Virus record (IMG/VR): IMGVR_UViG_3300031998_000010
Length of the DNA stretch: 64,000 bases
From: a virus
Taxonomy: Duplodnaviria; Caudoviricetes
Direction: 5' to 3' (one strand)
The notes under the pieces were generated by a model. It was not told where the DNA came from. It searched no databases and worked only from the letters and a program-made list of their open reading frames with translations. This document shows, in pieces, positions 56,742-61,836 of this stretch; position 1 is the first letter of the stretch; each line of letters opens with the position of its first letter. A program made the position numbers and the translations under genes.

Positions 56742-57513
56742 ATTGCTTAAGTAAAACAAAAGAATGCAGTTTATTCTTAGGATTTATTGCGTTAAGGTAT
56801 CGATTTATCTCTTTTAATGTAGCTCCGCTGGTTGCTAAATCATCATAAACTAATACATCTACTCCTTGTAAAGCTTCATACGCGATTTTTTCATCTTCAT
56901 CAGCGAATTTAAGATAGTTGAGAAAGCCTGAACGAATTTCTCGAGGTAAAAACATTTTGATTTCAAATAGCTTATCTGTTTGTTTCAAAGCATCAAATCT
57001 ATAAACTACTTCAGAAATAATTCGCTCTATCTCTCGTTCAGGCATGTTCCTTCTGCGAAGTGCTGTTTTAGCTTTTTCTGCATCAAATGTTACATTCTTA
57101 TATGCTTCTTTGATAAGTTCAAAATCTGACATAGTTGCATCACTATATTCCATAATCCAACTTCCCATCAATTCTATTATATCATGCCCAGTTCGAGATT
57201 GTGGATGTACTGCATAACCTAAGTTATCCAGATTAAAGATATAATCAAGATGAAGTATTCCATATTCAACAAACTGTTGAACATCTTCAGAAATTAATGC
57301 ATTTGCTTTAATAAAATCTCGAAATACTTTCATATCAGCTTTACTCGCATTTTTCTTAAATTCATACCCGTATATAACAGGAATATCACTAATCAATACT
57401 TCTCCATAATTCGGGTTTGCTAATCGCAATATATCGACAGCTTCATTGTCAACATTCCAGTTAAACACAGGTTTAGAATGTTCTATTGTTACACCTGCAT
57501 ATATGTTTTCCAT
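56740..57513 (-). CDS. type I phosphoribosyltransferase-domain protein
   Basis: PRPP-binding motif VLVYDDLATSGATL; GAGGAG RBS before MENIYAG. Confidence 0.75.
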   Translation of the reverse strand: MENIYAGVTIEHSKPVFNWNVDNEAVDILRLANPNYGEVLISDIPVIYGYEFKKNASKADMKVFRDFIKANALISEDVQQFVEYGILHLDYIFNLDNLGYAVHPQSRTGHDIIELMGSWIMEYSDATMSDFELIKEAYKNVTFDAEKAKTALRRRNMPEREIERIISEVVYRFDALKQTDKLFEIKMFLPREIRSGFLNYLKFADEDEKIAYEALQGVDVLVYDDLATSGATLKEINRYLNAINPKNKLHSFVLLKQ

Positions 57514-57527
57514 ATTTTTCTCCTCAA

Positions 57528-57649
57528 ATAAAAAGCACCGCCTCGGTATCATAGTGTCAACGCAGATTACTCGATTTAGCGGTGCTTATATCAAATGAAT
57601 GATATCACAAATATTAAATTATTGATACCGAAACGTATCTGCATTGACA
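57528..57649 (-). ncRNA. candidate structured sRNA or attenuator (about 120 nt)
   Basis: Starts at the predicted TSS of a consensus promoter, has three interlocked helices, ends in an AAGCACCGC/GCGGTGCTTTTT terminator. Confidence 0.55.
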
Positions 57650-57654
57650 ACTTG

Positions 57655-57683
57655 ATTATAATATGTAATAACCTTGATGTCAA
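57655..57683 (-). promoter_or_regulatory. perfect consensus sigma70/sigmaA promoter
   Basis: TTGACA-17 bp-TATAAT. Confidence 0.85.
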
Positions 57684-57690
57684 TATGAAT

Positions 57691-57697
57691 AACGATT
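57691..57697 (-). promoter_or_regulatory. class A motif AATCGTT(A)
   Basis: In tandem with the sigmaA promoter upstream of the structured RNA. Confidence 0.65.
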
Positions 57698-59295
57698 CAA
57701 ACTTCGTATTTACATTTATTTGGAAATTTTTCTTCAAAAATATCAATCAATTCCTGTCTAGATTTCTTATAATCTTTTATCTTATCTGAATCGTTGAGAC
57801 ATACAATTTGAAATTCACTGTTGATTATTGCAGGCCTGACATACGATAAATCGTTTTTGATATCTACATACAAAAATCTATGCAAATATTGCACATACTC
57901 TCCAGTTAGATACTGATAGTAAGAATAAATATGTTGGTTCACATTTGTTTTCTTACGTAGCATTGAAACAGATTGCGATAGTTTTTCTCCACATAATCCG
58001 CCAACTTTCTCTAATGTAGATTTAAGCATCGGAATTATTGTGTGTTCTGGCCTCACTATTTCGCCTGCAGGATATTTATCGTGATGAAGTGCATTACACA
58101 TCATATCAATCCCTGTCCTGCTTTGATGTTCAAACATGCTTGTTGGATTCATGTGTATGTGTTCTTGAAAGTAGATATGCGGTTTATCTCCTGTAAAGAA
58201 ATCACTTGCTCCCATTGGATTAAGAGGAAACATATCATCATTGAAATATATGAACTTTTCTGATAAATCAGGAATTCTCCATAAGAATGATTCAATAGTA
58301 CAACTATTAAATGTAGGAAAATATTGTTTAGGAATAAAATCAGAATGATAAACAATCTTAACCTTACTCGTATCTAACCATACAGGAATCTGACTCTCAC
58401 GAGCAACAATTAAGATTATTCGCTTCACAAAGGGCATGTATTCATCAATTCCGCGAATCAGATACTTCAATGTACCCCAAGAACGAAATCTAACTCCTGA
58501 AGCAGAGTAACTTCCTGTTGCTTTATTGAAATCAAGTATCCAATGTTTATCTGCACTATTCACATAAGGAATTACTGCGTCCATTGTGGGCTGCACATCT
58601 TCTTCTGTATATTCTCGCTTATTATTCATTCCCTCAAGTTGTGCATTTGTGAGCTTTCGCATGTAGTTCCAATCATATTCTTTTTCCTTAGCCCAAGTAG
58701 AAGGACATGCTCCAGGGCCTGTATATTTCAACGAAAATTCTTCAATGCATCCTTCAGGAAAATCATATGCTTTATCAGGGAATTGAGAAAAGCATTTTGC
58801 TACAAAGATATCGTCTTCAAAACCTTCTCCCCTTTCTGGGTCAATATCTGGCATATCTATTTTACTGTAGATAGCTTTTGATATTGCTAAAAACATCAAT
58901 GGACAACTTCTATGCCTAATTACTCCAATACCGTCAGGATGCTCATCTATTGTGTTAACATATAACTGAGGGTCAGCTTTCAATATACGACCATCATCAT
59001 CTAACATGATTAAGTAATCATATTTAGAATCTAAAAATTTTCTTCTGAGTTCTTTTCTTGCTCCAAGTATCCCGAGTTTGTCATAGTTATATATTGTGAT
59101 AGTATTAGGTGTAGGAGGTACCTGATAATTTTGCCAATTTTGTGCAATAATCATTATATCAATATCAGGCCATAATTCTCCTAATCTAAGTAATAACTCG
59201 GAGCAACGCCTGGAACGTTCTCTCCGAGTTTCAATATGATATTGACTATCATTATCTGGAAAGTATGAAATAATTCCAAATACTTTACGAATCAT
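57697..59295 (-). CDS. glycosyltransferase (GT-A-like) / Stealth-family hexose-1-phosphate transferase fusion
   Basis: N-terminal DYLIMLDDD; Stealth CR1 DAVIPYVN..D..W, CR2 LKYLIRGI..PTFNS..IE..LSEKFIYFNDDMF, CR4 CLND..FPNKCKYE. Confidence 0.85.
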   Translation of the reverse strand: MIRKVFGIISYFPDNDSQYHIETRRERSRRCSELLLRLGELWPDIDIMIIAQNWQNYQVPPTPNTITIYNYDKLGILGARKELRRKFLDSKYDYLIMLDDDGRILKADPQLYVNTIDEHPDGIGVIRHRSCPLMFLAISKAIYSKIDMPDIDPERGEGFEDDIFVAKCFSQFPDKAYDFPEGCIEEFSLKYTGPGACPSTWAKEKEYDWNYMRKLTNAQLEGMNNKREYTEEDVQPTMDAVIPYVNSADKHWILDFNKATGSYSASGVRFRSWGTLKYLIRGIDEYMPFVKRIILIVARESQIPVWLDTSKVKIVYHSDFIPKQYFPTFNSCTIESFLWRIPDLSEKFIYFNDDMFPLNPMGASDFFTGDKPHIYFQEHIHMNPTSMFEHQSRTGIDMMCNALHHDKYPAGEIVRPEHTIIPMLKSTLEKVGGLCGEKLSQSVSMLRKKTNVNQHIYSYYQYLTGEYVQYLHRFLYVDIKNDLSYVRPAIINSEFQIVCLNDSDKIKDYKKSRQELIDIFEEKFPNKCKYEV

Positions 59296-59922: not shown

Positions 59923-61836
59923 TCAAATATTGAACCTTGCTCTGAAATCTGCTTCTGTTATCTTTTCAATACCAAGCTGTGTAGCTTTTTTATTCTTTGA
60001 ACTTGAGCTATCAGGGTCATCAGTAATCAAGTATTTTGTATCCTTGGTAATATCTCCGACTATGAATCCCTTGTTATTAAGAAGCTGTTCAAATGATTTC
60101 CTCGGAATACTTAACGAACCCGTAATTGCTACCTTAATTTTTGAATTATTACTGTTTTCATTGTCAAATACTAAATTTTCCTTTATTAAATTCAATCTCT
60201 TAAATTTGTCAATATGTTGAATGATTGAACGAGAATTAGCATCACCTAATCTATAAGCCATATTATAAGGAATTTCGCCATTCATCAATTTGACTACATC
60301 TTCAGGATAATGAGATAATAAATCGGCAGTAGCGTCACCTAATCTAGGAATATTAAGAGCCTTGAGAGCAGATATAATAGAAACTTTATTCTTGTACAAA
60401 CCATTGAGCATCTGTGCAAATAATCTATACTGAGCACCAATTATCTGGTCACCTGAAGAGAATCTTGCGGCCATAATAAGATGGTCGTTCTTAGGGTCAT
60501 ATACAGATTCAATGGATATGTTGTCCTTCAAAAATTCTGTAAAGAACTTCAACTTCAAAATATCCCCAAGTCCATCAATAGGTGCTATATTATTACACCA
60601 TACAAGCAAATCTTGAATCTGAATATCTCTGCAATCAGGATTAGGACACTTGAGGTGAACACCTTCTACTGTGAGAGCAGTTCCACAGCAAGGGCAAGTA
60701 TCCGGAACTTCAGGTGCAACTGGCTTAAGTGTTTCTTCAATATAAGGAATGACTTCTCCGCTTCTAAGCATTCTAACTCTTGCCCCTACACCCCAACCAT
60801 TCATTGTGACCATCTTTGCATTACAGCCGGCACATTTCTTGACGGTAGCTCCTGACAACTGAATAGGCTCGACATGAAGAATTGGAATCAAATATTTCAT
60901 CTTACTAAGATTCCACTCAATTCCTGTTATTGTAGTTACTGCAGATTCTGCTTTGAACTTAAATGCAGAAGCATTATAGGAGATATTAGTACCTACTTCA
61001 GCTTGATTAAATGTGATATCATTAGAAGTGATAACAAGCCCATCTGCTGGATAATGTGTATACCAACTTCCTTTTAAGGATTTCATATCATTTTCAAACT
61101 GTTCGAGATTTGAGTACTCCCGAGATACCATACATACAACATTTCTGAAATTAGCAACTAACCAGCTATGCATTGATTCATAATCTGAGAAAGGATAAAG
61201 AGGAAAAGGATATGATTGATTTGATTCAATTCCAATAGCTGTATAAACAACTACTGTTAGATATCTGAGGTCGTCGCTTACTTCTTTCATGCCAATCAAC
61301 CCTGCAGTAGAATTTCTAGGATTCTTTGCATCTTCATGTGTCAGTGAGAACTCTTCAAACTTATCTAAAGACATCAATATCTCGCCTCTAACTGCACCTG
61401 TAAATTCTTTATCTTCAAGAGTGAAGTACTCGGGAACTATTCTATGTATCTTGTCAGTAATGTCAATTCCAATGTTACCATCACCTCTAGTTAGGGCTTG
61501 ATACATTACACCATTTCGATAATACATCGCACAGCTTAAGCCGTCTAACTTGAGCGTTACGCAAGTTTTCTTATCTCTCAGTCCTTTAGGAAATTCATCC
61601 CAACTATGACACTTAGGCAAGCTTCCAACTACACCATATTTATGAGGAAACTTGTCTCCTGAAGTGCTTGAAATATCATAACCATGACCAACTGACAATA
61701 GAGGAGAATTTGGATTCTCAGCCCGTTCCTCTTCAATCAATGCATCAAATTCAGCATCAGAAAGCGGAGATGTTCCGTTGGAATAGTACTTCTGTGATGC
61801 TTCTTTGATTAGTTTCTGTCTTGTTTCAGTATCCAT
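59923..61836 (-). CDS. ligA: NAD-dependent DNA ligase
   Basis: YY..G..SDAEFD, KLDGLS adenylation motif, TRGDG, NPRN..AG, RSGEVIP, zinc finger CPCC..CPNPDC, BRCT VAITGSL. Confidence 0.93.
   Translation of the reverse strand: MDTETRQKLIKEASQKYYSNGTSPLSDAEFDALIEEERAENPNSPLLSVGHGYDISSTSGDKFPHKYGVVGSLPKCHSWDEFPKGLRDKKTCVTLKLDGLSCAMYYRNGVMYQALTRGDGNIGIDITDKIHRIVPEYFTLEDKEFTGAVRGEILMSLDKFEEFSLTHEDAKNPRNSTAGLIGMKEVSDDLRYLTVVVYTAIGIESNQSYPFPLYPFSDYESMHSWLVANFRNVVCMVSREYSNLEQFENDMKSLKGSWYTHYPADGLVITSNDITFNQAEVGTNISYNASAFKFKAESAVTTITGIEWNLSKMKYLIPILHVEPIQLSGATVKKCAGCNAKMVTMNGWGVGARVRMLRSGEVIPYIEETLKPVAPEVPDTCPCCGTALTVEGVHLKCPNPDCRDIQIQDLLVWCNNIAPIDGLGDILKLKFFTEFLKDNISIESVYDPKNDHLIMAARFSSGDQIIGAQYRLFAQMLNGLYKNKVSIISALKALNIPRLGDATADLLSHYPEDVVKLMNGEIPYNMAYRLGDANSRSIIQHIDKFKRLNLIKENLVFDNENSNNSKIKVAITGSLSIPRKSFEQLLNNKGFIVGDITKDTKYLITDDPDSSSSKNKKATQLGIEKITEADFRARFNI

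Follow-up and report, generated by a model that had tools for sequence, protein, structure and literature searches.

Sequence comparison identifies the leader of a phosphoribosyltransferase (PRTase)-like phage gene as a member of a real RNA family which is absent from Rfam 15 and undescribed. This leader RNA of about 125 nt, which starts at a consensus promoter and ends in a terminator just 5' of the gene, was found in the window (the whole stretch of 64,000 nucleotides that was analysed), part of an uncultured phage whose 175,559-bp virus record has a G+C content of 35% and is rated as complete by CheckV. Alternative folds computed for the leader and its relatives suggest that the terminator would stop transcripts derived from upstream and that those started at the leader's own promoter would pass. 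The reading that we favour, tentatively and with somewhat less than even confidence, is that of a portable promoter-leader-terminator cassette working as an attenuator which senses where its transcript started. It is favoured because extending the RNA upstream flips its computed fold and because the underlying complementarity between the promoter region and the RNA 5' end is cognate-specific.

The sequence-only reading of this locus had described three helices, A:A', B:B' and T:T', with a U tract, a consensus promoter and a GAATCGTTA motif in tandem. When the minus strand is read directly, all of these elements lie where they had been placed, and the order A-B-T-A'-B'-T' is a crossing one. Hereafter H designates the helix that starts at the RNA 5' end and consists of P1 (A:A') continued by a nested P2, and U designates a promoter-region segment lying upstream of it. 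The features of the locus are the following:

59923-61836, minus strand: NAD-dependent DNA ligase gene, upstream neighbour
57697-59295, minus strand: gene for a Stealth CR2/CR4 protein of 532 aa, hexose-1-phosphoryl transferase type, upstream neighbour
57698-57690, minus strand: GAATCGTTA ("class A") motif, which shares bases with the stop codon of the Stealth-domain gene upstream
57686-57668, minus strand: U segment of the promoter region, with complementarity to the H 5' strand
57683-57655, minus strand: sigma70-type promoter TTGACA-17-TATAAT, 12 of 12 consensus matches
57649-57637, minus strand: A, 5' strand of P1 (base of H), 13 bp with A', one of them U.G
57632-57623, minus strand: B segment, with three partners (nested, local and the window-specific B')
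57591-57586, minus strand: AUAUAA motif, immediately 5' of T and overlapping it
57587-57579, minus strand: T, terminator stem 5' strand, RNA positions +63 to +71
57567-57555, minus strand: A', 3' strand of P1, within the loop of the T:T' hairpin
57554-57542, minus strand: spacer of 13 nt from H to T', containing the window-specific B'
57541-57525, minus strand: T' (57541-57533) and U tract, T' being followed by UUUAUUU
57525-57520, minus strand: ribosome-binding site (RBS) GAGGAG
57513-57511, minus strand: ATG of the downstream gene
57513-56740, minus strand: type I PRTase-like gene, 257 aa, ComF-like fold
57698, 55849, 55073, 52184 and 46442, minus strand: examples of the GAATCGTTA word in the window

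The perfect TTGACA-17-TATAAT promoter occurs once in the 64-kb window, where 0.18 sites are expected by chance, and the 5' end of A falls 5-6 nt past the -10 hexamer, at the predicted transcription start (57649). No promoter other than that of the cassette serves the PRTase-like gene. A folding energy of -32.8 kcal/mol was computed for the 125-nt RNA, which corresponds to z = -3.0 relative to shuffled sequences. An inverted-repeat search returned T:T' and B:B' (57631-57623 with 57551-57543) as 9 perfect bp each, with 100% complementary arms; the nested partner of B, at 57575-57570, provides 6 bp and is the equivalent of P2. A simple terminator scan of the window leader reported only a weak alternative hairpin of 5 bp, and no direct repeats were found in the leader.

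The word GAATCGTTA(T/A)A is found in 28 copies on the coding strand versus 4 on the other strand over the whole 175.6-kb genome, and the GAATCGTTA copies mostly stand 12-30 nt 5' of an RBS. This distribution suggests a promoter word particular to the phage, which is probably a single-element promoter recognised by a phage-specific factor; a search of the genome for a phage-encoded sigma region 2 found none. At two related loci (L006:1590-1700 and L008:30-90) this word is all that lies ahead of the PRTase-like gene, which begins only 24 nt after a "stop codon-TTTGAATCGTTA" junction. The window has the same stop-codon/TTTGAATCGTTA junction (57513-57700), followed by a promoter-plus-leader of 165 nt, a layout which gives the impression that a cassette was placed between the RBS and an older promoter word. 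The DNA ligase encoded upstream has its best matches, at about 33% identity, in the large Firmicute phages Listeria LIS04, Streptococcus GXN1 and Bacillus SP-15.

Relatives of the locus were sought with a profile of the downstream protein, which recovered 15 loci. Four of them (L002, L004, L005 and L010) have the leader ahead of PRTase-like homologues sharing 37-58% protein identity, and two others (L003 and L014) are identical to L002; among the 15 profile loci the leader is absent at L001/L009, L006-L008, L011 and L012, the last of these being leaderless with only a consensus promoter ahead of its RBS. A sixth member, L016, was found by a pattern made of the promoter, an AUAU(A/U)A-CAC word and GUG-UU, which specified neither H nor T:T' complementarity. 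The family counted here comprises six members (the window, L002, L004, L005, L010 and L016), drawn from loci other than those of the closest protein homologues, P0001-P0006 (64-91% identity), which exist only in Logan assemblies. The phage of the window and the 200-kb phage of L002 each carry one copy of the leader. No new member appeared among the matches listed from the pattern scans after filtering, nor in an exhaustive tighter pattern scan with the covariance model, and no similar DNA was matched in the phage collection or IMG/VR. Against Rfam 15, whose families include purine, preQ1-I/II/III, PRPP/ppGpp ykkC, ZTP and THF-II, no member matches: the best overlap of the window leader is with Ocean-V, at 20.2 bits versus a threshold of 75, and the leaders of L002, L004, L005, L010 and L016 return nothing at E up to 1.

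All six members have a near-consensus sigma70-type promoter, and exactly 5 nt always separate TATAAT from the UG that opens helix H. This helix, a near-perfect duplex of about 21-30 bp from +1, measures 21-24 bp in the window, L002, L004 and L010 and about 30 bp in L016, and is weak in L005; its nested P2 part amounts to 8-11 bp in L002, L004, L010 and L016. The apical region carries an inner hairpin, P3, which L016 does not have. The motif AUAU(A/U)A is invariant in the six members and, as AUAU(A/U)A-N-CAC, forms together with the 5' UG the only invariant sequence, a weak test of a ligand pocket with six sequences. The same motif was considered as a second promoter class and rejected, as it shows neither recurrence nor strand bias in the genome and a promoter scan finds nothing there. 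T begins at +62 to +64 in five of the six members, and the 3' strand of H starts 0-3 nt past T, never overlapping it. The T:T' stem has 9-12 bp with 4-6 G-C pairs and is followed in every member by a UUUU(U)AU-type tract, the gap from T' to the RBS being 8-12 nt in all six. Its loop is not a short one of 3-10 nt: it spans 36-53 nt and holds the 3' strand of H, so that H and T:T' have to be either alternatives or the two halves of a pseudoknot. Self-folding of the loop is not improved relative to versions in which the spacer was shuffled (z = -0.1 to -1.7), and a classical upper terminator stem, formed by the spacer with the 3' strand of H, was likewise discarded as no better than with shuffled spacers. 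The genes neighbouring the cassette differ between phages, and the cargo of L016 differs as well. As a separate observation, the -35 hexamer TTGACA (57683-57678, minus strand) occurs again within A' (57560-57555), both copies being complementary to UGUCAA, the six bases with which the RNA begins; L016 shows this complementarity too, as does L005 with GUCAA at +13 to +17.

Across the members H, P3 and T:T' stay paired through compensatory changes. In P1, columns 3, 4, 6, 7, 9, 10 and 11 vary in relatives with pairing kept, and the T cores CACCGC, CACCAC and CACUACUCC are each compensated in T' (both determined by script); the pair before CAC in T is G-C, A-U or U-A, also with compensation, and six of the nine pairs of P3 change on both sides. 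A covariance model built from L002 alone recovers L004 (E = 1.5e-6), L010 (4e-4) and the window (1.5e-3), all over their full length, and gives a single hit in the 64-kb window. With the window, L004 and L010 as its basis, a second model (R2) recovers L002 at E = 2.9e-20; since the R2 alignment derived from the L002 model, this hit is not independent. In the four model-aligned sequences (window, L002, L004 and L010), 94.6% of the cells are paired versus 71.5% in shuffles, with 36-46% in slid controls, and 24 of 38 pairs change on both sides; these counts are biased in favour of the structure, to which the alignment had been fitted. A script was used for L016 and L005, as the covariance model mis-registers L016; a MAFFT alignment of the leaders was structurally wrong.

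The sequence-only reading had named the lack of compensatory substitutions in homologous loci as refuting it; such substitutions are present, and the reading is not refuted on this ground. Its three helices fare differently: A:A' and T:T' recur in the five relatives with compensatory changes, and B:B' has no counterpart there. A conserved B:B' or spacer:H5' pairing (H5' being the 5' strand of H) was rejected on energies of -13.9 kcal/mol in the window against -3 to -7 in the other members, in which B pairs with a segment nested inside A:A'; B:B' has to be abandoned as a conserved element, its strength being confined to the window.

These comparisons also make it highly improbable that the arms arose by chance as inverted repeats, or that they form an operator or a cruciform at the DNA level and have no function as RNA. 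Such an origin would agree with an AT-rich sequence containing palindromic TATA-like words, and with U:H5' arms that flank the -10 hexamer. It is at odds with two-sided changes that keep pairing between loci whose proteins are only 40-58% identical, and with an arm spacing of anything between 8 and 39 nt, a variation ill suited to a protein operator. G.U pairs are found on the sense strand, and in five of five members H gains 4-16 kcal/mol of stability on the sense strand relative to the antisense strand, which argues for RNA rather than DNA. Covariation may be regarded as having already largely refuted this explanation.

The evidence which orients the interpretation towards the origin of the transcript comes from the DNA just upstream of the leader. 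In five of the six members, promoter DNA located there is complementary to the 5' strand of H, and this U segment is present only in RNAs which start further upstream. In the window it appears as an inverted repeat, I1 (57684-57668 with 57659-57643; 17 nt, 76% complementary), and the U:H5' pairing is seen in the minimum free energy (MFE) structure of the upstream-extended RNA. The cognate assignment of U segments to H5' strands is the best of the 720 permutations possible among six members, and cognate pairing beats far-upstream controls in five of the six; compared with shuffled U segments, the P values are 0.003, 0.005, 0.008, 0.027, 0.15 and 0.79. L010 is devoid of U:H5'. It is the complementarity of U to H5' that makes an upstream extension of the RNA flip its computed fold. 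With 36 additional upstream nucleotides, the MFE structure goes from H to the full T:T' in the window, L002, L004 and L016, and shuffled extensions do so in 36, 0, 0 and 0 of 100 trials, respectively; in five of the six members T:T' goes from an ensemble probability of at most 0.03 to one of 0.65-0.995. All of these flip figures come from pseudoknot-free folding, in which H and T:T' are mutually exclusive.

Based on these folds, the proposed mechanism would operate as follows. An RNA from the cassette's own promoter would begin at the first base of H, which would form once its 3' strand has been made. With this 3' strand lying in the T:T' loop and adjoining T, a rigid helix of 21-33 bp would part T from T', disfavour the terminator hairpin and let RNA polymerase read into the gene. 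An RNA derived from upstream would carry U, which would pair first with H5' and delay or prevent the formation of H; T:T' would then close as an ordinary hairpin and transcription would stop before the gene. The cassette would in this way insulate its cargo from upstream transcription and leave it under its own host-type promoter. Formulated in full, as a self-contained cassette for gene expression, horizontally mobile, in which a terminator 3' of the promoter reads the origin of the transcript, a 5' helix holds this terminator open and a promoter-derived strand disarms the helix, the proposal is one that we hold with some reserve and would place short of an even chance.

Several observations point in the direction of this origin-sensing attenuator. 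The same architecture is found in five independent loci, four reached through protein homology and one (L016) through the pattern, with differing flanking genes and a different cargo in L016. Transcripts from the cassette's own promoter are expected to be productive because the leaderless L012 drives its gene directly from a consensus promoter. A second hairpin of the window is also concerned:

55853-55800, minus strand: hairpin of 14 bp, CCUCCCGAAUCGUU with AACGAUUUGGGAGG, one G.U, 27-nt loop

This hairpin is followed by AUUUUU and by the ATG of an HD-phosphohydrolase-like gene (55793-55077, minus strand), and has a GAATCGTTA word in its 5' arm and the Shine-Dalgarno sequence (SD) in its 3' arm. 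RNAs starting inside its loop would escape both occlusion and termination. It would thus use the same logic of starting inside in order to escape, and we count it as support for the attenuator. The sequence-only reading had offered two functions, an abundant small RNA (decoy or antitoxin mimic) and an attenuator in which A:A' and B:B' oppose the terminator. Of these the attenuator fits best, as far as A:A' is concerned, H and T:T' excluding each other in pseudoknot-free folding; the part given to B:B' is not conserved, and nothing was found in support of an antitoxin mimic.

The main arguments against an attenuator concern the compatibility of the helices and the order of events. The two helices H and T:T' may be present together in an H-type pseudoknot, and both classes of RNA would then terminate: their order is a crossing one, and a spacer of 13-20 nt could, by our own geometric estimate, just span 21-33 bp. 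Since H does not overlap T, its antiterminator action would be topological. H is far stronger (-27 to -43 kcal/mol) than U:H5' (-10 to -17 kcal/mol), so the switch would have to be kinetic, and with toeholds left unpaired, H could be regained in time through strand displacement. L010, without U:H5', and L005, with its weak H, also count against it. A terminator placed before the promoter would insulate equally well and more simply. Finally, P3, AUAU(A/U)A and the fixed position of T at +62 to +64 are left unexplained by this model, which leaves room for a bound factor or ligand.

If the two helices do coexist, the leader could be a stand-alone small RNA, in which H and T:T' would form a long coaxial pseudoknot and most transcripts would end at the U tract, the RNA of about 125 nt being a decoy, a regulator or a protein partner and the gene being expressed only by leaky read-through. 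We consider this rather doubtful, but it stays live because the spacer can, by our estimate, just span H and grows with it: the spacer has 13-20 nt where H has 21-33 bp (27 nt in L005), lengths of 13, 13, 14, 18 and 20 nt going with an H of about 21, 23, 22, 24 and 33 bp, respectively. The consensus promoter, the canonical T:T' with its U tract and the gap of 0-3 nt between T and the 3' strand of H, which suits coaxial stacking, are all in keeping with such an RNA. So is the burial of its 5' end in a helix, a known stabilising feature of RNAs. A small RNA gives no role, however, to the co-varying U:H5' complementarity, nor does it account for an RBS lying immediately past the U tract in every member when no other promoter is available for the gene. 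The leaderless relative uses the same kind of promoter simply for gene expression, and with T paired no conserved single-stranded seed would be left.

The unexplained conserved elements can also be assigned to a binding function, and the nature of the cargo has to be considered in this respect. The protein encoded downstream in the window scores 19.3 bits with Pfam PF00156 (cut-off 26.3) over a C-terminal YDDxxTSGxT loop which is invariant in 15 homologues; with this score below the cut-off it is therefore classed as a divergent member of the type I PRTases. Its AlphaFold2 model (257 aa, pLDDT 90) has its best PDB fold match in H. pylori ComF (E = 2.5e-4), followed by HGPRT, APRT and OPRT, and on this modelled fold we identify it as a divergent type I phosphoribosyltransferase. 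The PADLOC search produced nothing beyond a weak match to ShosT (E = 0.0047), located at the PRPP loop. The only match from a cultured phage is gp114 of Sphingomonas phage PAU, at 27% identity, the others being in uncultured phage contigs; no homologue was found in the genome contig collection, and single-protein scans found nothing. L001, a 126-kb phage with terminal repeats, has two tandem PRTase-like paralogues of 262 aa each (L001:2564-4568), located after a dCMP-deaminase-like gene and with no leader. The cargo of L016 is of another kind:

L016:4522-7569: leader and operon on a 7.6-kb IMG/VR fragment, a 124-aa ORF followed by queF, queC, queD and queE

The queF product of L016 is a preQ1 synthase above the NCBIfam cut-off, and the locus thus presents a phage 7-deazaguanine operon behind a leader that is not of a preQ1 type. 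The product of the 124-aa ORF is unrelated to the PRTase-like protein; its own homologues, at L268 and L269, are without the leader.

In an attenuator responding to a ligand or protein, riboswitch-like or with an autoregulation of the PyrR kind, P3 and AUAU(A/U)A-CAC would be the binding site for a small molecule or for a protein, perhaps the PRTase-fold product of the gene, and binding would free or sequester T and in this way determine termination. Several features would suit this unlikely alternative. P3 covaries at six of its nine pairs, AUAU(A/U)A is invariant, and the cargoes, a PRTase-like gene and a queF-queC-queD-queE operon, recall bacterial genes of the PRTase and que types, which sit behind purine and preQ1 riboswitches; PRTase folds also include the nucleic-acid binders PyrR, PurR and ComF. 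Weighing against it, searches of Rfam match no member to any family, even with E allowed up to 1-10, the conserved unpaired bases are very few for an aptamer, L016 dispenses with P3, and H is a long sequence-free rod, not a pocket. The proposal that PRPP, purines or ppGpp are the ligands finds no support, in view of the first two of these points. Neither QueC nor TGT was found in the phage of the window, so that the two cargoes share no obvious ligand; a shared 7-deazaguanine ligand was discarded on this ground and on the unrelatedness of the L016 124-aa protein to the PRTase-like protein.

It is distinctly improbable that the leader serves mainly in RNA processing or stability, H being a 5' stabiliser or an RNase III site and T:T' ending or protecting the upstream message, with expression set by RNA decay and not by conditional termination. 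H, as a near-perfect duplex from +1, is long enough for RNase III, and 5'-terminal helices stabilise mRNAs in Firmicutes; such a role leaves unexplained why T' directly abuts the RBS of the gene and why U covaries with the 5' strand of H.

If the preferred attenuator holds, the position of the RNA 5' end would be a new input for attenuation, and own and foreign transcripts would be discriminated at the level of transcription by an RNA family absent from Rfam. Large phages could then move a gene together with its own timing control, free of interference from neighbouring operons, and the cassette would be a compact natural insulator, of interest to research on phage transcription and on synthetic gene circuits. 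Even under another mechanism, the leader belongs to an undescribed family of structured RNAs that covariation supports; its members come from uncultured phages of the gut or rumen and go with nucleotide-related cargo, namely preQ1 synthesis genes and a ComF-like PRTase.

Comparison with known systems places the cassette close to several of them without coinciding with any. With the morons, independent transcription units spread among phage genomes (PMC3594210), it shares the promoter-gene unit found in different genomic neighbourhoods; morons are promoter-gene-terminator units, whereas here a terminator and a structured RNA stand between promoter and gene. The succession of a strong promoter, a short structured RNA, a terminator and a gene also recalls the 6S RNA of lambda PR'-tR' and the type III toxin-antitoxin systems (ToxIN). 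Unlike lambda PR'-tR', the leader has no Q-type binding site with a promoter-proximal pause element; unlike type III systems, it contains no tandem repeats and is followed not by the gene of a ToxN-like endoribonuclease (ToxN/AbiEii type) but by that of a protein with a PRTase/ComF-like fold. A crossed helix topology, and the position of one member before a que operon, liken the family to the preQ1-I/II/III, SAM-II and guanidine-IV riboswitches, and in guanidine-IV a contact with the terminator loop opposes termination, as proposed for H; the family differs from them by matching no Rfam model, by a much longer H and by few conserved unpaired bases.

Discrimination between a mobile unit's own transcripts and outside read-through has a precedent in IS10 and IS50, in which, as Davis, Simons and Kleckner reportedly described in 1985, fold-back inhibition protects from impinging transcription. 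In IS10 the inhibitory hairpin has its 5' arm upstream of the site at which the element's own transcripts begin, and only outside transcripts form the hairpin. These elements act on translation, by sequestering the SD, and in this differ from the attenuator proposed here. IS200 has a terminator at its left end, before the start site, acting against impinging transcription (PMC4513863); in the present cassette the terminator is downstream of the promoter and would be bypassed through a 5'-terminal helix.

The closest likeness is with the trp, pyr and T-box attenuators, in which a leader between promoter and RBS also ends in a terminator directly before the gene, and an upstream strand (here U) competes for a strand of the helix that opposes the terminator (here H). 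The terminator itself has the G+C-rich stem and U tract of an intrinsic terminator, without its short loop. Mutually exclusive helices tied to the terminator, which characterise a three-helix attenuator, are found in nested folding, with U:H5' shifting the ensemble to T:T' in five of the six members. In those systems the antiterminator shares nucleotides with the terminator stem, whereas H shares none and pairs with the terminator's loop. Their inputs are a ribosome, a tRNA, a protein or a metabolite, none of which is proposed here, where the input would be an RNA 5' end located upstream or downstream of U. The logic would thus be that of a three-helix attenuator, and it departs from the known cases in a non-overlapping antiterminator and in the proposed signal, the origin of the transcript.
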